Of a stretch of 64,000 nucleotides of DNA, positions 9,668-36,984 are shown in pieces. The DNA comes from a virus, in IMG/VR virus record IMGVR_UViG_3300025035_000013, positions 24,627-88,626 of that record; one strand, given 5' to 3'. Position numbers and translations under genes: made by a program. Numbering within the stretch: the stretch's first letter is position 1; the number at the start of each line of letters is the position of its first letter. The notes under the pieces are model-generated. The model did not search any database and had not been told where the DNA came from. It worked only from the letters and a program-made list of their open reading frames with translations.

Positions 9668-9946
9668 TCATGGAGTAACCATCATAGCCATTCCGGTCAC
9701 TACCACACCCGCAAGAGCGCCGCCTAATAACGTACTGACCTCATCCCGTAAATCTGCCCGGCGGCTAGCAGGGTGGAGGATATCCCACACTTCTTTGAGT
9801 ATCCCGACGTTCGCCGCCGCCAACAGTCCAAGGAGTGCCGCCATCTGCATACTTGTGATGCCTCCCACAATCAGGCCGAGTGCCACCGTAATAGAAATGC
9901 AGTATCCAACAAAAAAGTGAGCCTTGTTATCCATCGATATTTTCAT
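9668..9946 (-). CDS. small GC-richer membrane protein (K-HF...G--KE-WD type)
   Basis: Three hydrophobic segments; DNKAHF and ILKEVWD motifs. Confidence 0.7.
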   Translation of the reverse strand: MKISMDNKAHFFVGYCISITVALGLIVGGITSMQMAALLGLLAAANVGILKEVWDILHPASRRADLRDEVSTLLGGALAGVVVTGMAMMVTP

Positions 9947-15524: not shown

Positions 15525-15878
15525 GTGTGCTTTTTCTGTTCCCAAGAAAAGCACCAAACTCGGCACTACACGACAATCAAGCCGCTAGTGCATATAAGCT
15601 ATCATTAGCTGCGTTTACTTTATTTACGCTATTTTAGTCAGTCGTCTGACTATCCCAAGAAAGTCTATTTCCTCAAAATCGAATCTATATCAGGCCCATT
15701 ACTAATGATATTAATTTGGTAGTTCAGTTTGATGCACCCATCATATTGGATAGTCCCTTCGTCAAGTTCTATCTATCCGTTTACTGTTTAACACCATTAG
15801 TGGTGGACCTGGGGAGGTACTGCCCCTCCCGTCTTCCAAGCCTTTAATACTCTCCTGCTTTACAATCTTTCGATTGTG
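15525..15878 (-). ncRNA. ssrA: circularly permuted (two-piece) tmRNA
   Basis: Acceptor piece ending CAGGTCC-A-CCA at 15801 precedes the coding piece starting GGGCCTG at 15697; G3:U70 pair; tag AANDSLYALAA* at 15612-15577. Confidence 0.9.
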
Positions 15879-16437: not shown

Positions 16438-16530
16438 TGGCGGAAGAGGGCGGAGTCGAACCCCCAAGGGTAAGGTCATTACCTCAACTGTTTTCAAGAC
16501 AGGTACCGTCGCCAGTCGGTTTGCTCTTCC
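16438..16530 (-). tRNA. tRNA-Ser(TGA)
   Basis: GGAAGAG acceptor, loop CTTGAAA, long variable arm, CCA. Confidence 0.9.
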
Positions 16531-16556: not shown

Positions 16557-17008
16557 TTATGCATAACCGTAAACTTCTGTAAAGTTTACTTTTGCTAAAC
16601 GCTTCATCAAAGATGCCAAATTTTGGTGCAGAACACTATAATCGGGACTAACTGCTTCTCTGCGTTTGTAATCGACTAATTCGGCCGATGTTAAGGAATA
16701 AAGGTCACGAAGGCCCTCATCCAGAATGTTGTTTGCTGCATTTACATCTCTATCATGCTCAGCACTACAAGATGGACAAATCCATTCCCTAATGTCGAGC
16801 GGCAAAGACTCTACCTTATGACCACAGCAGTTGCAAGTTTTAGAAGATGGGAAAAAAGTATCAATTTTGGTAAATGTTTTACCGTACCAATTGGACTTAT
16901 ACTCAAGCTGACGCACCAATTCCGACCATGAAGCATCGTGAATTGATTTTGCCAAGTTATGATTTTTAACCATGTTCTTTACTTTTAAAATACTTTAAAT
17001 GATTTCAT
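16557..17008 (-). pseudogene. tnpB: internally deleted TnpB (IS200/IS605/IS607-type) relic
   Basis: RBS plus MKSFKV start (17008) joined out of frame to LKVKNM..; C-terminus has L-YK--W, PSSK-C--CG, W-C--C---HDRD-NAA-NI. Confidence 0.85.
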
Positions 17009-18389: not shown

Positions 18390-18473
18390 AGGAAGATACA
18401 GGAATCGAACCTGTCGGGCCCTTTCTGGCCGGGAATTTAGCAAACTCCGGTTGCACCTTGCACCACATCTTCC
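18390..18473 (-). tRNA. tRNA-Ser(GCT)
   Basis: GGAAGAT/ATCTTCC, loop TTGCTAA, long variable arm; abuts the next tRNA, no CCA. Confidence 0.85.
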
Positions 18474-19434: not shown

Positions 19435-19517
19435 TGGTACCCCGAGTCGGACTCGAACCGACATGCCTAAGCGTCAGGACTTAAATCTGATGCGTCTACC
19501 AATTCCGCCATCAGGGC
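19435..19517 (-). tRNA. tRNA-Leu(TAA)
   Basis: GGCGGAATTGGTAGACGC D-arm, loop TTTAAGT, long variable arm, CCA. Confidence 0.9.
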
Positions 19518-19689: not shown

Positions 19690-20100
19690 AAATGTGCTTA
19701 ATTAAGATTTCTTGACCAATGATGTTTACATCTGCAACCTTTTCATTGAAAATCTTAATAAAGCACACTCAATAAAGTTCAATCAAATAATGTTGGCTTT
19801 GCTCACCACGTCGATTACCAACCTTTTAATTCTGGAACACCTGTATATGCCATCTGCGTTAACAGTTTCATAAAGGGAATCGAACCCATATACTTTGTAT
19901 CAATCTCTCCGTATCCAACAACGGTCTTAACATATTAATATATTAATATGCATAATTTTTTTGATTGAACATCTATTGAATGTCCAATATTCGGATTTTT
20001 CAGTTTCCCATTCATCCCCGAATCCGCCCGTAGAGGTTTTTAAACAGGTCCTCGCAGCCACGTTCCATTCCTGTTTGCTAACACGATATTATGTGTCATT
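19690..20100 (-). ncRNA. candidate structured leader / stable RNA(s) of the tRNA operon
   Basis: No long ORF; several strong hairpins and a GGGTTCGATTCCC T-loop-like element. Confidence 0.35.
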
Positions 20101-20105
20101 GAATT

Positions 20106-20146
20106 CCACCTAACAATCATATCAAGTTTCGATTTAATTGTCAAAT
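20106..20146 (-). promoter_or_regulatory. sigma70-type promoter, 41-bp repeat copy 1
   Basis: TTGACA-17-TATGAT; identical to 20187-20227. Confidence 0.8.
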
Positions 20147-20186: not shown

Positions 20187-20227
20187 CCACCTAACAATCA
20201 TATCAAGTTTCGATTTAATTGTCAAAT
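20187..20227 (-). promoter_or_regulatory. sigma70-type promoter, 41-bp repeat copy 2
   Basis: TTGACA-17-TATGAT; a third promoter (TTGACA 20344-20339, TATAAT) lies upstream. Confidence 0.8.
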
Positions 20228-20426
20228 TTATTTATCAATCAATGATTTGGCGAAATTTCATCCAATTCATTATGAAACAAATTGATTCACCAAAACATTT
20301 AAATCGACATAATCAATTATATAGATTTTTAATTAATTGTCAAATGTCTAATAAAAACAACAATTTACCCCTTTGACAACCTCGCGAGGATGTCAAAGTA
20401 AACAATAAAAGTACTCATGCTTACGT

Positions 20427-20693: not shown

Positions 20694-20730
20694 ACATTAC
20701 TCCAATTGAGTTCTAAAAATCCATCATAGA

Positions 20731-21264
20731 TTAATTAACGTGGGTTGTCAACTTTTCAACAAATTTGTCGTATCTCGCTCGATGATATTGGTATTTATTG
20801 AAATAGATTGCTCCAGATTTTTTTAATTTCCCGTGTTTAAAATTTCGTGGACCGATGTTATAACTTTTTACGGCGCACTCAATGCTACGATTGCAATACT
20901 TTACGTAATACTCTCTAAGTAGAGAAGTTCCTTGCTTCATGTTATGCTTCGGATTGAACGTGCCATTCTGCACCTGCATAAGTCCAATAGAGGGGGGTAT
21001 TTTCCTGTTAGGATTTATCTTGCTCTTCTCTGGATTGAATGCCTTCGGATTGAATGCTGACTCTACTCTGATTATTGCCAAAATATCTGCTTGTTTTGGA
21101 AAATCTTTATAAGCCATTTTCGCTGAATATTTTATCACATACTCTGGTGGTATTACGAGCTTATCTGCTAAGGAGGTGTTTGATAATATCAATAAACACA
21201 TTACGATCTTTAGAGGCCACGTCAGTCTGTGGCCGGTGGTGGCGAGCAGATGGATGAGGCTCAC
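20731..21264 (-). CDS. SLT-domain lytic transglycosylase
   Basis: II-VES-FNPKA, GLMQV, A--SYN-GP motifs; N-terminal hydrophobic anchor. Confidence 0.85.
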   Translation of the reverse strand: MSLIHLLATTGHRLTWPLKIVMCLLILSNTSLADKLVIPPEYVIKYSAKMAYKDFPKQADILAIIRVESAFNPKAFNPEKSKINPNRKIPPSIGLMQVQNGTFNPKHNMKQGTSLLREYYVKYCNRSIECAVKSYNIGPRNFKHGKLKKSGAIYFNKYQYHRARYDKFVEKLTTHVN

Positions 21265-21725
21265 TTGGAAATCTTCTCCATACCGCCCAAGTCCTCGCCG
21301 ATGCTGACATGGTCCTGCACCTCGAAATCGAATTTCTTCGGCTCGCCGATCTTATACATCTCGACGTTATCTGCTTCCGACTTCCCTTCGGGCACGTTGG
21401 GGTGCGGCCGGTTGGGGATATTGGCGAGGAAGGCCTCCATATCTCCCAGCACTTGTGGCAGCCTGGCTTCTAGTTGCTTCAACTCATCATTCACCGCTAT
21501 CACTTTGGCCTTGATAGCGGTCGTTTCTTCACCATTGGCCTTCGCCTGACCGATTAGCTTGGATGCGACATTGCGCTTGGCTTGCAGTTCCTGCGCGCGC
21601 GCCTGGATGCTTTTGCGTTCGGCTTCCAGCTGCTCGAATTTCGCGGTATCCAAAACAAATCCGCGTGTCGCCAAACGTGCGGCCACGCCCTCCAAATCAT
21701 TTCGTAAAGTTTGTATGTCTAACAT
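21261..21725 (-). CDS. serS: stand-alone N-terminal tRNA-binding arm of seryl-tRNA synthetase (host-derived, truncated)
   Basis: MLDI--LR, coiled-coil, IPN-PH--VPEGK-E-DN-E---GEP--FDF---DH--IG; ends before catalytic motifs; GC-richer; has a GGAG RBS. Confidence 0.9.
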   Translation of the reverse strand: MLDIQTLRNDLEGVAARLATRGFVLDTAKFEQLEAERKSIQARAQELQAKRNVASKLIGQAKANGEETTAIKAKVIAVNDELKQLEARLPQVLGDMEAFLANIPNRPHPNVPEGKSEADNVEMYKIGEPKKFDFEVQDHVSIGEDLGGMEKISK

Positions 21726-21764
21726 CTGCGCTCCATATTTGATTTAACTCAAAAGCCCACATCA

Positions 21765-22457
21765 TCAAGACCATAATCCTCTATAATATTTGCCGAATAA
21801 AATGAGGCCGTTTGTTATTCTGTTTTCTACCTTTTCGATACTATCCCAATCATAAACAATTTTAACATTTTTAGAATACAATTTATTTAATACTGATTGA
21901 TGTTTTGATTCCTCTTCGGTCATTGGATATGATGTTTTATAAGCATCCATCCAATTTCCATCGTTTAAAATCATTTCAAAGGCAAAAATCATTTCATCGA
22001 GTACCCAGTCCCATCGTACATGATGGTCGCACTCAATTTTGACACTATCTTCGTCATTGTAAAAGTCAAATGCTCGTTGAGCATTTTCATATTCTGAATC
22101 ATCACTATATCGATACTGTAGTGGAACATCTTCTAAATCAACTATGACCGAGCCGTGTTTAGTCTCTTTCAGCTTTTTAAGCATAGGTAAAATAATCAAT
22201 GCCAATGTATAATCCATACTCCAAGTGTCATAATCGTGGATTTTAACTTTGATTTTACGTTTCTGCTTAGTATCAATCCATTCACATAAAGTGTTTATCG
22301 GAGTATCTGCTAAAATTTCACCAAATCTATGAACATATTTATCGTATGCTTTTGTATATTCGTGCTTATCATTGTATTTAGGAATCCAAAACATCAGCAT
22401 TTCAGCTATCTGATAAGGCCCAACATAATACTTGTACTTTCCTATGTCCACTCGCAT
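21765..22457 (-). CDS. conserved T4-like hypothetical protein
   Basis: YVGPYQIAE-L-FW, IHDYDTWSMD-TLA-II-PMLK, W-WVLDEMIFAF. Confidence 0.8.
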   Translation of the reverse strand: MRVDIGKYKYYVGPYQIAEMLMFWIPKYNDKHEYTKAYDKYVHRFGEILADTPINTLCEWIDTKQKRKIKVKIHDYDTWSMDYTLALIILPMLKKLKETKHGSVIVDLEDVPLQYRYSDDSEYENAQRAFDFYNDEDSVKIECDHHVRWDWVLDEMIFAFEMILNDGNWMDAYKTSYPMTEEESKHQSVLNKLYSKNVKIVYDWDSIEKVENRITNGLILFGKYYRGLWS

Positions 22458-22482
22458 AATAATCTCCTTTAATCTGGCATTA

Positions 22483-22695
22483 TCAAAAACAACCTAATGC
22501 TCTAAATTCATCTGGCGTCATAGGAATAGAATTGTGGGCAAGTGTGATGTGTACTACTTTTTCTCCAATAAATCTTTGATGATAATCCAATTGAGCATCT
22601 GTTCTCGTCACAATCTCAACAGCGGCATTTTCATTTGGGGCATCAATTTCGTAAATATGTTCAAATGTCGCATGAGTAGTAATAATAAAATTCAT
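22483..22695 (-). CDS. small hypothetical protein
   Basis: Intact ORF in operon. Confidence 0.6.
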   Translation of the reverse strand: MNFIITTHATFEHIYEIDAPNENAAVEIVTRTDAQLDYHQRFIGEKVVHITLAHNSIPMTPDEFRALGCF

Positions 22696-22752
22696 GTCAA
22701 TCCCTTTATCAAAAGTAATACCTGTTATTTTGTTCTAATTCTAGACTCATTT

Positions 22753-23127
22753 TTAAGCTTCATCACGAATTTTTAGTGTTACATAATCACTATTTTCAAA
22801 ATTAGGTTCAACTGTGATATTGACATCAATTATATCGAAGCCTTCCGTTGCTTTATTATCTGACGTTAACACAAGTGTTACCCCGCCGCACGAAGACCAA
22901 GAAGACCATACCCCCGCGCTTTTATACTTATGCATAGCACTCTTTACCGTGCTTTTGATAAAATCAATTAACCACAAATCATAATTAGACTCCCCTCTGC
23001 GATAGAGATTATTTTCTTTAATGTAGTCTATTGCTTTCATGAAAGACTTTTTTTCATACTCAATATTATAGTTCATTTTATCTCCAAGTTCTATGAGTTT
23101 CCGAAACATGTTCTCTACCACCGTCAT
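22753..23127 (-). CDS. hypothetical protein
   Basis: Intact ORF; start probably internal. Confidence 0.6.
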   Translation of the reverse strand: MTVVENMFRKLIELGDKMNYNIEYEKKSFMKAIDYIKENNLYRRGESNYDLWLIDFIKSTVKSAMHKYKSAGVWSSWSSCGGVTLVLTSDNKATEGFDIIDVNITVEPNFENSDYVTLKIRDEA

Positions 23128-23455
23128 CCACCGAAATAAACCACGAAATGTCGTCAGGAATTTCTACAATTTTCAATGACGCATATTTCCCGTTCGCTGC
23201 TTTGCCAAATATTTTAACTGCTTTAATCAAATCCTTGTTTGTACGAATATCATATCCGGATTTCAGAACATAAATAGAATTCCCTGTCGCCTTTATACAA
23301 CCATAATCATTGTAATTACTTGTATACTTATTAAAATGATCAGCATCCATCACAGGCATGAGTATAATTGCATCAGATTTATTATCTATCAAATACTGCA
23401 TTACTTCTGATGAAACCCCAAACCCACCAAAATCTACATTGATTACGACTTCCAT
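23078..23455 (-). CDS. conserved phage hypothetical protein
   Basis: VVIN--FGGFG-S...R----L---V---G--A-G-Y--LKIVEIPDD--W-I---DG-EHV-E-HRTW. Confidence 0.75.
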   Translation of the reverse strand: MEVVINVDFGGFGVSSEVMQYLIDNKSDAIILMPVMDADHFNKYTSNYNDYGCIKATGNSIYVLKSGYDIRTNKDLIKAVKIFGKAANGKYASLKIVEIPDDISWFISVDDGGREHVSETHRTWR

Positions 23456-23469
23456 TATTTAATCTCCTG

Positions 23470-24384
23470 TCAAAATCTGATGTTAGGATTGCCAACCTGA
23501 AAAACTTTAAGCCCCATTGCTCTCCAGTTATCACACACGCTAGGCCTATCATCGATAACGAATTGACAATTGTAATTCGGAGCAATATCTCTCCAGAAAA
23601 TTTCCTCTTTCACAACTGTATCTTTTCTCATATCACCTGTTGCTCGCATGAGTAACGTATCAAAAAAAATGTCATTATAATCGAGCCACTTTTCTGTTTC
23701 TGGTCTACAGATGCCATCTCTCCCAGAAAGAATTATAACAGTATCTTCCACTGGCATGTTATTTACCAAAAACTTTACTTGTTCATCACAATCATCCAGC
23801 CCGACTTTATCCCATTCAAACGCCCCGCGCTTACCATTCATGTGAGCCAATGTTCCATCTACATCAACCAAGATAGCCCTTGGTTTTGTGACGTCTGCAA
23901 CATACTGCCGAGTACTTGGAAATTCTTTAGTAAATTGTTCATACTGCTTCCAAATAACCTGATGACCGACAGTATCGCGGCGGCGCTCGTCACGCTTAAT
24001 TGCTTCCATCACATCAATATGGAAGACTTTGAACTCAACAGTATATCCAAGTTCTTCAAGTTTTGTATGCAGCAGTGACCGATATTTAATATTCAAATTC
24101 GTATCACCAATAATGATGTTTGCTTTCATCTTTGCGCAGTCATCAATTATTTCATTCACCATTTCAGTGACTTTGTTTTCATTTTCTTTTGTGAATTTCC
24201 AGAGGGACCAGAAGTTATCGCTAGAATTATCATCATCAAATCCAAGCAGGCGCTTGCGCATAATATCACGTTCAATTCTAACGAAGTAATCATATTCCCG
24301 CTTTGCAATTTCGGTGGTTTTGCCCGACCCCGAAATACCAATTGCAATAATAGCCCTTTTCACGTATTTCTCCTCGTACCACAT
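23470..24384 (-). CDS. pseT: polynucleotide 5'-kinase / 3'-phosphatase (T4 PseT)
   Basis: P-loop GISGSGKT and HAD motifs DVDGT, SGR, DDR. Confidence 0.92.
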   Translation of the reverse strand: MWYEEKYVKRAIIAIGISGSGKTTEIAKREYDYFVRIERDIMRKRLLGFDDDNSSDNFWSLWKFTKENENKVTEMVNEIIDDCAKMKANIIIGDTNLNIKYRSLLHTKLEELGYTVEFKVFHIDVMEAIKRDERRRDTVGHQVIWKQYEQFTKEFPSTRQYVADVTKPRAILVDVDGTLAHMNGKRGAFEWDKVGLDDCDEQVKFLVNNMPVEDTVIILSGRDGICRPETEKWLDYNDIFFDTLLMRATGDMRKDTVVKEEIFWRDIAPNYNCQFVIDDRPSVCDNWRAMGLKVFQVGNPNIRF

Positions 24385-24447
24385 TTATCGATATAATCAT
24401 TAAAACACATGCTGATAAAATGTCAAATGTCTATACAAACCAATGAC

Positions 24448-24735
24448 TTATGCTGCATAGGGCTGAAGTTCAAAAATGAATGAACTGTCGGCATCGATCC
24501 GAATATTCGTGACTTTACGCCCATTCAACAAAGAACCGACTGAAATGAATGGACCTCCAGATGGGTCCACAAATCCCAAATCATTTGTGTCAATTTCAGC
24601 CTGCCCGTCTTTACCACCATATCTCCAGTGTTTCAAGTCACCTACTATTTTAAACTCATCATTGTTAATTTTTTGAAAAGAATACTCAACTCCCTCGCGA
24701 TTTTTCATTGGTCGACCTCCTTGTGATGACGGCAT
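24448..24735 (-). CDS. small hypothetical protein
   Basis: GGAGG RBS before MKNREG; GFVDPSGGPFI motif. Confidence 0.65.
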   Translation of the reverse strand: MPSSQGGRPMKNREGVEYSFQKINNDEFKIVGDLKHWRYGGKDGQAEIDTNDLGFVDPSGGPFISVGSLLNGRKVTNIRIDADSSFIFELQPYAA

Positions 24736-24750
24736 AGAACAACGGCAAGA

Positions 24751-25863
24751 CTAAGTCAATCTAGTCTTTAGCCATTCTGCTCTTTTGTTAACTGGAAACT
24801 TATTGAATTCATGTAACACGTCATTAACATTTGCGCTGCGGGCCTTAAACATTACGCAACTTAAAGGCAAGTCCTTAATCGCAATAGCAAAGTCCTTTTG
24901 TGATTCAATGGTCTTGAATTTACAATAATTATCTGTGAGTTCATTTTGTATAACTGCATACATTGATTGTGCTTCATTGAACTTATGTGTATCTTCAGGA
25001 AACGTAGCTAAGTATTCATCCACTTCGCGCGTGACGATAAGTTCACATACTGAATTCAAAGTCAAACCATTGCCACGGAGGCGATGGATTGCAAGATATG
25101 TAGGCGACTTTATTTTAACACGTGTTTTTGTTTTTGTGTTATATACAACAAACCCTTCCTTGAGTCCAGTCAATTCACCAAGCACTTTGAGACAATCATC
25201 TTGAGTATTAAATGAAAACACCTCAACAGGTCGGACATTCCAATTAAGCAAAGCGTTATGTACTTCCTGATTACCAATAAGATATTCATTGCCGGTTGCA
25301 TTTTCTACACTAGATAGAAATACCAGCATATTTTCTCCATACGGAGTTACTATGCGATTATCTTTCCCGATACACTCGAACAAGTATGTGTATTCCTTGT
25401 TCAGCAATTCCGTGCAGTCTTCTTGAAATTCTGCTTCTGTTCGGCCCATAGCTGATAGCATAAAATCTCGGAATGTCCCGAAGAATTCTTTCGGTCCTTC
25501 TGCAAAAGCAGTTCCGCGAGTACCGATTTCCCACTTCCCTGTTGGGAGGCAAAAGTACGTAAACATGAGTGAGCCGTCGGCTTTCTCAAATGTGATTGAA
25601 TTTTGAAAGTCGAATGTGTCGACCCCATTCTCACCCAAATTGTAAAAACGCGGCATGCCATTGCGAATAATAGAACCGTCATATCCAATTAGCAATCCTC
25701 GGCAAAGATTTACTATTGGATGATTCTTGATTGCTTCGATTTGATTATAGTTCAAAAGAACCATACCCAAATCTTCATAATGCTTCATGTCAATGCCGAG
25801 TTCAGTGAACTCTGCCCATCGTTTATTCAGCACAATATCAGATATTTTTTTCAAATTTGTCAT
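24751..25863 (-). CDS. rnlA: RNA ligase 1 (T4 RnlA-like)
   Basis: CRG, F-N, EKADGS adenylation motif, FE---NRIV--Y, EGFVV, KIKS--Y. Confidence 0.9.
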   Translation of the reverse strand: MTNLKKISDIVLNKRWAEFTELGIDMKHYEDLGMVLLNYNQIEAIKNHPIVNLCRGLLIGYDGSIIRNGMPRFYNLGENGVDTFDFQNSITFEKADGSLMFTYFCLPTGKWEIGTRGTAFAEGPKEFFGTFRDFMLSAMGRTEAEFQEDCTELLNKEYTYLFECIGKDNRIVTPYGENMLVFLSSVENATGNEYLIGNQEVHNALLNWNVRPVEVFSFNTQDDCLKVLGELTGLKEGFVVYNTKTKTRVKIKSPTYLAIHRLRGNGLTLNSVCELIVTREVDEYLATFPEDTHKFNEAQSMYAVIQNELTDNYCKFKTIESQKDFAIAIKDLPLSCVMFKARSANVNDVLHEFNKFPVNKRAEWLKTRLT

Positions 25864-36639: not shown

Positions 36640-36879
36640 CTTTTGTGTTTAAATGAAGTCGTTAATTTCATCCCATATAGCTGCATATTACTATGCAGAA
36701 CAGACTATCTCTTCACCTTCACAGGTGCTATGCGCTTCGAGTCACTTGACCCTACGGCTTTCGCCTAGTCGTTACACCTTCCCATATTAGGGCTTGGCTC
36801 GGTATTGTCCCAATTTGGGATGTTCACCGAATTCACATAGTTTTCAATTACAAATTTCTTTGTATTGCGCCCACGATTA
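36640..36879 (-). mobile_element. group I self-splicing intron, 240 nt, no homing endonuclease
   Basis: U|TAA 5' junction, terminal G; P GAATTCGGTGAA, Q AATACCGAGCCAAG, R AACGACTA, S GAAGAGATAGTCTG; P3 CTATGTG/CGCATAG; removal restores KIA-ANSAFG. Confidence 0.9.
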
Positions 36880-36984
36880 AGCGATTTTCAATGCAAGTTG
36901 TTTATTTTTTAATGCTGCTATTTTTGCTCTACTACTATTTCTCAATTCTAAAAGCTCGTCTAAAGTCATTTCTGAATAATTCAT
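36880..36984 (-). CDS. gp43: DNA polymerase gp43B, exon 1 (35 codons)
   Basis: MNYSEMTLDELL...KQLALKIA; AGGA RBS. Confidence 0.85.

Follow-up and report, generated by a model that had tools for sequence, protein, structure and literature searches.

A mini-gene derived from cellular seryl-tRNA synthetase in an aquifer phage and its possible maintenance as a free tRNA-binding arm

The 64,000-nt window analysed here (positions 24,627 to 88,626 of the IMG/VR virus record IMGVR_UViG_3300025035_000013) carries, at 21261-21725 on the minus strand, a mini-gene that descends from serS, the cellular gene for seryl-tRNA synthetase (SerRS), and that may have been kept by the phage as a free tRNA-binding protein. 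This gene, which we call serS', opens with an ATG, has the Shine-Dalgarno (SD) motif GGAG five bases 5' of it, and encodes 154 amino acids (aa): SerRS residues 1-148, the donor's last six residues (MEKISK) and the native TGA stop. Its product consists of the coiled-coil tRNA-binding arm (residues 1-103), 45 residues from the start of the catalytic domain, and the MEKISK end. The Pfam family Seryl_tRNA_N (PF02403) matches residues 1-107 with an E-value of 1.7e-29 and 102.7 bits against a cut-off of 28.2 (103.2 bits for the same open reading frame, or ORF, in the genome scan), and solved bacterial SerRS chains are colinear with residues 1-150, the best being 6HDZ (E 9e-39). The class II core, PF00587 (tRNA-synt_2b), has no match in the ORF, nor, at E-values up to 1, in the 98.7-kb record that contains the window, a record rated 57% complete with the remainder of the genome unseen; the motif 1 region is likewise missing from the alignment of serS' to SerRS. 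As judged from these matches, serS' is a member of the Seryl_tRNA_N family and not a SerRS enzyme. A sequence-only reading of the window, made before any database search, had described an intact 154-aa stand-alone SerRS arm with a ribosome-binding site (RBS) and without catalytic motifs, spanning 21215-21740 and richer in GC than its neighbours. The Pfam and PDB matches and the GGAG agree with the first part of that description, and the span coincides with the host-derived segment at about 21214-21745. The composition agrees as well: the island has 55% GC (54-57% over 21225-21675), whereas the flanking phage DNA has about 33%, with most 150-nt windows at 27-38% and occasional ones as high as 43%, and the genome as a whole has 36.6%.

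The anatomy of this cassette records how it arose. At its 5' edge, which is uncertain by about 10 nt, lies the donor-derived ribosome-binding region (21726-21745, minus strand). Homology to cellular serS begins here, about 12-20 nt ahead of the ATG, and includes the donor RBS, which reads TGGAGCGCAG in the phage and TGGAGTGCAG in L002, a Gallionellaceae metagenome-assembled genome (MAG); a related phage, seen on contigs L245 and L246, has nothing comparable at the same site. From the start codon the homology is unbroken to codon 148, and the following 39 nt match the extreme end of cellular serS, so that where cellular SerRS ends in ...PYMGGMEKISK-stop the phage ORF ends in ...EDLGGMEKISK-stop. 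The junction, located by comparing phage and cellular serS DNA at both sites, falls at 21279-21290 (minus strand; codons L146-G147-G148-M149), within a microhomology, TGGGCGG(N)(N)TGGA, found once at serS codons 146-150 and again at the C-terminal end of cellular serS. Because the two copies sit in the same codon phase, the deletion between them was automatically in frame; it accounts for about 277 core codons, all class II motifs among them, that are missing from the phage copy. This comparison identifies serS' as an in-frame microhomology deletion derivative of serS rather than a simple truncation. The earlier statement that the ORF stops before the class II motifs is therefore right as to their absence but not as to the manner of their loss, since the core was removed internally and the ORF still ends with the donor's last six codons and stop. 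On the 3' side, 21214-21264 (minus strand) holds a GTG that overlaps the serS' stop (GTGA), followed by 17 codons of the donor's downstream gene, with a 39-nt in-frame deletion of their own. In the cell, the gene after serS, whose GTG start overlaps the serS stop (AAGTGA), encodes a 260-aa membrane protein, ion-channel-like in appearance. Host-derived sequence extends to about 21214, where the frame runs on into an SLT-domain transglycosylase, and the 17 donor codons now form an N-terminal extension of that phage protein.

The cassette is thus inserted between two phage genes, the core of the SLT-domain lytic transglycosylase (20731-21213, minus strand; Pfam SLT, E 3.7e-14) and, upstream at the left border of the site, a 230-aa gene of unknown function (phrog_11543; 21765-22457, minus strand). 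L245 and L246 have the same gene order as the window, namely the polynucleotide kinase-phosphatase (PNKP) gene, three small genes, the 230-aa gene, SLT and an 88-aa DUF6561-like gene, without the cassette: there the 230-aa gene is followed by 15 nt, which hold an AGAGGA of their own, and then by the ATG of an SLT homologue that is 67% identical, 159 aa long and 18 aa shorter. The window codon aligned with that ATG is CTA, and because the ancestral start is gone the only starts left to SLT are the host-derived GTG and an internal ATG. An internal start would leave the SLT signal peptide without its charged start; the host-derived GTG is the sole upstream in-frame start, and its GGAG sits within the codons of serS'. 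This arrangement indicates that the cassette took the place of SLT's own RBS and start and now supplies both. With its foreign composition, its cellular nearest relatives and its absence from the same site in a related phage, serS' answers to the description of a moron.

Its source can be named with some precision. In a search of one genome per prokaryote species (GTDB), the best 80 relatives were all from the Gallionellaceae and their kin (Sideroxydans, Gallionella, Sideroxyarcus, Ferriphaselus and 'Nitrosomonadales' MAGs), and the best cellular match was 81% identical in amino acids and 82.5% in nucleotides. A maximum-likelihood (ML) tree of 72 codon-aligned sequences places the phage copy inside a Sideroxydans-type clade as sister to L002, with an ultrafast bootstrap (UFBoot) of 98, and the phage copy has 11 derived sites in common with L002 as against 0, 0 and 3 with the next relatives. 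JGI metagenomes, aquifer sets included, held nothing nearer than 82.6% nucleotide identity, and every match there was a full-length cellular serS in a context of about 60% GC. On the strength of the tree and these searches we regard the donor as a member of the Gallionellaceae and the origin of the cassette as settled. The betaproteobacterial affinity proposed beforehand is borne out and narrowed to Gallionellaceae/Sideroxydans, the donor search that had been suggested leading to this family and to L002 as sister. The phage itself occurs in aquifer and groundwater samples and in one hot-spring metagenome, and in one aquifer run (X1) short host-like serS contigs are present at about 320-fold depth and the phage contig at about 35-fold. 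Since the donor tree, the host-like serS in the same run and the GC-rich tail-fibre ends elsewhere in the genome all point the same way, a Gallionellaceae host is likely, although not proven.

The phage copy has diverged as a protein-coding sequence would. Three-point distances, with L002 as the sister and three outgroups, give the phage branch a dN of 0.10 and a dS of 0.51-0.55, hence a ratio of 0.18-0.20 (bootstrap 95% range 0.09-0.39, with no replicate reaching 1), and the L002 branch a dS of 0.08-0.12. ML branch lengths on a fixed tree are 0.596 at codon position 3 and 0.132 at positions 1+2 for the phage (ratio 0.22), and 0.079 and 0.015 for L002, whose branch is 7.5-fold shorter at position 3 and, over all sites, 9.4-fold shorter (0.037 versus 0.351). 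Because the sister branch is so much shorter, most of the divergence lies on the phage side; differences specific to the phage number 52, versus 9 specific to L002. Cellular lineages have ratios in a range that includes the 0.22 of the phage (whole tree 0.124, median cellular tip 0.107). Changes from GC to AT outnumber the reverse by 29 to 9, and the GC content at third positions (GC3) is 66% in the phage copy and 74-81% in the four nearest cells. Neutral simulations that started from L002 and ran to the observed 78 differences gave median ratios of 0.49-0.86, including those with a five-fold AT bias and those with stops forbidden; no run came to or below the observed 0.17, and 95-98% of the unconstrained runs met a stop. 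The changes are also not scattered at random. Outside residues 64-79 they affect 3 of 64 conserved sites (those at least 95% conserved in 71 cellular copies) but 16 of 69 variable ones (p 0.0025), whereas in residues 64-79, the tip of the arm hairpin, 6 of 11 conserved sites are replaced, as opposed to 3 of 64 elsewhere (p 1.6e-4), and the local net charge has gone from -2 to 0. The remodelled tip suggests altered binding. Taken together, these data indicate purifying selection at the amino-acid level over most of the phage branch, relaxed about twofold relative to cellular serS, and a branch dN/dS of about 0.19 is at odds with the neutral divergence that the sequence-only reading had named as the mark of a passenger fragment. 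The branch also bears on the age of the capture. Between the window phage and the L245/L246 phage, the genes flanking the site differ by a dS of at least 1.7 (saturated) and a dN of 0.16-0.46, and since the dS of the cassette branch is only about 0.5, the capture must be much younger than the split of the two phages. At the same time, it is not very recent.

The locus recurs across assemblies. Those from ENA, JGI and Logan contain the exact serS' protein on 24 or more contigs, in 39 index blocks, and the flanking genes are the same in every case; one 12.5-kb contig (L001) is identical to the window, and at least 90% of the sampled words of a 1.8-kb query (20700-22500) are present in 22 runs. 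All cassette contigs seen, from several samples and years, already have the core deletion, and the exact copies show no further decay. The population is nearly clonal, too clonal for pN/pS. Only two variant contigs turned up. One of them, L163 (ENA contig k141_317812), carries A118P; its nucleotides 1-155 are Gallionellaceae serS upstream DNA, about 92% like L002, and the switch to the phage copy falls precisely at the one 20-nt run that host and phage copies have in common. An assembly chimera is the likeliest explanation of L163, although it could be a natural host-phage recombinant.

Beyond this one phage lineage, the search for the same truncation in other phages, proposed in advance as a check, came back empty. 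Neither the serS' protein nor the SLT protein found a relative in IMG/VR scans, and a scan of IMG/VR with the domain alignment returned 39 SerRS N-terminal loci, all of them full length (424-438 aa) or running off a contig end. SerRS-like matches in INPHARED were prophage flanks or full-length genes, a few of them from jumbo phages, with no stand-alone arm among them, and a near-identity search with 3 kb around the ORF gave no match there. PHROGs has only a full-length SerRS family of 426 positions. Distant homologues (at most 43% identical) of the 230-aa neighbour are present at eighty IMG/VR loci, but a SerRS-like piece, SLT or any other neighbour of serS' accompanies none of them, and these loci therefore offer no usable synteny.

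The phage copy is also present in RNA libraries, which tells against the lack of expression that the same reading had listed as a sign of a passenger. Contigs without a mismatch to it cover 21363-21627 and 21719-22011 in one aquifer metatranscriptomic run (X23) and 21368-21595 in another (X24), and since roughly one base in six is different in the host gene these contigs derive from the phage. Cover is uneven, with 21628-21718 and 22012-25000 uncovered in X23. We saw no strong promoter or terminator between the serS' ORF and its neighbours, and serS' probably lies in a long leftward transcript together with the PNKP gene and the small genes.

AlphaFold2 (AF2), run with 56 aligned sequences, predicts the arm as a two-helix antiparallel coiled coil, as in SerRS, with helices at 27-63 and 69-101 whose predicted local distance difference test (pLDDT) score is above 90 and block values of 82-95 over residues 1-100; residues 104-154 are of low confidence (pLDDT 41-69). 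In SerRS the arm contacts the long variable arm and the D and T loops of the tRNA (PMC4666401). Lacking the active site and the motif 1 interface, the serS' protein should be able neither to charge tRNA nor to dimerise normally with the host SerRS. The reading that we favour, tentatively and with a probability of about 45%, is that serS' is a maintained, non-catalytic arm protein that probably binds tRNAs with long variable arms. According to this model, the phage would have captured a stretch of Gallionellaceae chromosome comprising serS and the start of the next gene, a stretch that became lodged between the SLT gene and its 230-aa neighbour. Either during capture or afterwards, a deletion at the microhomology would have removed the entire catalytic core in frame, leaving a 154-aa product composed of the coiled-coil arm, a probably flexible 45-residue tail and the six native C-terminal residues, and the mini-gene, translated from the donor's own RBS, would since have been maintained as a protein. 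The arm protein could grip the long variable arm and elbow of type-2 tRNAs, tRNA-Ser above all, whether of host or phage origin, and so act during infection as a free tRNA-binding factor that sequesters or chaperones tRNA or blocks another protein's access to it. Candidate ligands are encoded nearby: the phage has about 13 tRNA genes, among them two for tRNA-Ser (16438-16530 and 18390-18473) and two for tRNA-Leu, all four with a long variable arm, as well as genes for RNA ligase 1 and PNKP 2-5 kb upstream of serS'. The nearest tRNA gene (19435-19517) is 1.7 kb from serS', separated from it by two genes and some 0.9 kb of non-coding DNA. The data establish the origin, anatomy and insertion of the cassette, its presence in RNA libraries and its constraint as a protein; a free binder of type-2 tRNAs is the most economical guess as to its activity, and both that binding and any gain from it for the phage are inferred. 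The roles put forward in the sequence-only reading, namely shielding of long-arm tRNAs from anticodon nucleases, a decoy function or redirection of host SerRS, are likewise speculative. A bolder version, in which the host's SerRS arm has been turned into a free and retuned factor on long-variable-arm tRNAs, for example masking tRNA-Ser of host or phage from a tRNA-directed defence or toxin or withholding it from host SerRS, we regard as decidedly doubtful.

Several observations weigh against maintenance as a tRNA-binding protein. The low dN/dS could belong to a full-length phase that preceded the core deletion. The replacements at the arm tip could mean that tRNA contact has been lost instead of retuned. 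The cut does not respect the domain boundary, and the 45 catalytic-domain residues that stay behind have no confident place in the AF2 model, which has an accidental look. The start of SLT at a GTG overlapping the serS' stop provides a second, non-functional reason for the frame to stay open, and the restriction of the gene to one nearly clonal phage lineage means that recurrence lends no support. The RNA contigs are of low depth (about 2.3) and show neither strand nor level, and carry-over of DNA could produce them. We know of no test in which an isolated SerRS arm bound tRNA. Finally, one contig of 5.8-fold coverage (L162:1501-1893) has a 19-nt frameshift deletion in codons 14-20 (window 21663-21681), its sole difference over 3.4 kb. 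Together, L162 and L163 differ from the window at two places in the ORF and at base 21729, which lies four bases upstream of the start, beside the host-like join; both contigs were picked up because their protein differs, which biases the pattern of variants.

Some of these points would follow naturally if serS' were the relic of a full-length phage serS whose selection dates from its time as a complete enzyme and whose remaining ORF, after a recent loss of the core, is functionless. Such a history is somewhat unlikely in our view. A deletion within a complete copy would leave just what is found: the cassette retains the beginning of serS with its RBS, the final six codons with the stop, and the first part of the gene that follows. 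Large phages do carry full-length SerRS genes. The tail (residues 104-149), which has no partner structure in the mini-protein, has changed at only 2 of 23 conserved sites, a paucity that is not statistically significant, and the existence of the frameshifted contig fits a gene that is no longer needed. However, no full-length or intermediate copy turned up in any collection searched, and the contigs, from different samples and years, are all already deleted without having decayed further; moreover, the loss of 6 of 11 conserved tip residues would be odd for an enzyme that needs to recognise tRNA-Ser. A different passenger history, in which the arm protein is useless and the frame is open only so that ribosomes can reach the GTGA stop-start of SLT, is unlikely. 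It would explain why both deletions in the cassette are in frame, and it draws on the facts that the ancestral start of SLT has become CTA and that its only upstream in-frame start, the host GTG, has its GGAG within serS' codons. Translational coupling, though, accounts for missing stops and not for constraint on amino acids: simulations with stops forbidden had medians of 0.49-0.78 and never produced 0.17, the changes avoid conserved residues, and the ratio of positions 1+2 to position 3 is in the cellular range. SLT would be served equally well if the arm codons were deleted and the SD and GTG kept, and no such deletion was seen.

The constraint might also have been inherited from cells, either through a recent transfer from an unsampled donor or through repeated gene conversion from host serS, so that the low dN/dS would reflect cellular selection. 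By arithmetic on the ML branch lengths, about 0.5 of cellular position-3 divergence followed by a short neutral drift of about 0.1 fits the totals, but it requires a six- to nine-fold violation of the clock between sister cell lineages, and nothing nearer than 82.6% in nucleotides was found in the GTDB species genomes or the JGI metagenomes. Conversion could draw on L163, if its junction at the only shared 20-mer is that of a natural recombinant. Yet a sliding-window mosaic test against 144 cellular copies found near-identity only in universally conserved windows, and without near-identical stretches beyond these a recent conversion is unsupported; the lean of the phage-specific changes from GC to AT also speaks against such an origin. 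We therefore hold inherited constraint to be very unlikely. An assembly chimera of phage and host contigs, against which the sequence-only reading had itself cautioned, is hardly conceivable. The GC content does step sharply at both edges, and L163 does resemble a host-phage join; but the same junctions recur on the 24 or more contigs, from different assemblers and samples, and the insert, with no more than 82% identity to its nearest host counterpart, contains two in-frame deletions and reads in frame into a phage gene. In X1, furthermore, the phage contig spans the cassette at phage depth (about 35), far from the depth of the host-like serS pieces (about 320).

Other features of the genome deserve mention in their own right. 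Within the tRNA cluster, a 93-nt tRNA-Ser(UGA) with a long variable arm (16442-16530, minus strand) scores at the Rfam threshold for tRNA-Sec (47.4 versus 47); ARAGORN reads its anticodon as UGA (Ser) and not UCA. A permuted transfer-messenger RNA (tmRNA; Rfam RF04321, 82 bits, full model) adjoins the cluster at 15577-15866 on the minus strand, and a 138-aa ORF within it (about 16557-16973, minus strand, corresponding to L001:10753-11169) has a precomputed match to the Cas12f1-like/TnpB zinc-ribbon family PF07282 and may have been left behind by a TnpB-type element. The non-coding stretch 19758-20135 (minus strand), flanked by the tRNA cluster and the DUF6561-like gene, has by far the deepest RNA contigs in both metatranscriptomes (19-45, compared with 2-5 nearby), and three near-consensus sigma-70-type promoters lie just upstream of it (20116-20144, 20197-20225 and 20316-20343); the tRNA array may be preceded here by a leader or a small RNA. 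A group I intron (Rfam RF00028, 94 bits) is located at 36681-36889 on the minus strand. Two further GC-rich islands were seen, one outside the window (G000:C1:97219-98648 of the genome, 54% GC), made up of the C-terminal part of a 370-aa fibre-like protein and the following 102-aa ORF, and one at about 9668-9946 of the window, a 92-aa membrane protein with 52% GC. Both islands may likewise have been acquired from hosts rich in GC or from phages of such hosts.

Stand-alone tRNA binders that derive from synthetases are already known; what is new to us is a phage SerRS arm as a candidate for that role. In Trbp111 and the Arc1p/EMAPII-type domains, appendages of synthetases serve as separate, non-catalytic proteins that bind tRNA by its shape; they are old, widely conserved and built on an OB fold. 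By comparison, serS' is a single recent capture with a coiled-coil fold, confined to one phage lineage and with putative binding only. Phage T4 acts on a host synthetase in another way, its Vs protein modifying valyl-tRNA synthetase. To the N-terminal domain of SerRS, as seen in 6HDZ, 6H9X and the T. thermophilus SerRS-tRNASer complex 1SER, serS' is homologous over residues 1-148, but its arm stands alone, without a class II core or dimer interface and with a remodelled tip at 64-79. Two eukaryotic cases are reported that serve as precedents: the SLIMP-type SerRS of animal mitochondria, a SerRS paralogue whose catalytic activity is dead or reduced (PMC10570016), and SerRS acting as the factor that selects tRNA-Ser for METTL6 (PMC8373065; bioRxiv 10.1101/2025.06.25.660299). 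On these accounts parts of SerRS serve, as proposed for serS', through recognition of tRNA-Ser and not through aminoacylation; unlike serS', both keep the core fold, and no partner enzyme is apparent for serS'. Papers in PMC and bioRxiv, judged mostly from titles and abstracts, included none on a stand-alone SerRS arm or a phage synthetase fragment. Like host-derived morons in general, serS' is compositionally foreign, lies between conserved phage genes and is absent from a syntenic relative; it differs in being a one-domain piece of an essential translation gene and in donating a start codon and leader to the next phage gene.

In summary, a working arm protein would be the first SerRS tRNA-binding arm known to us to stand alone, acting apart from its enzyme, and it would add a protein component to a phage tRNA kit (about 13 tRNAs, RNA ligase 1 and PNKP) directed against host defences that target tRNA. 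The remodelled tip could then reveal what sets the tRNA preference of the arm, and if the arm has indeed been retuned, the locus would represent an undescribed principle of counter-defence or takeover, the theft of a domain from an essential host synthetase. The locus also ties an uncultured, AT-rich aquifer phage to the iron-oxidising Gallionellaceae as its probable hosts. It is a single-lineage curiosity, but an instructive one: whatever the function of serS', it offers a clean and datable case of the domestication of host DNA, in which a donor RBS was captured, a microhomology deletion removed the core in frame, and a start codon and leader peptide were donated to a phage gene.

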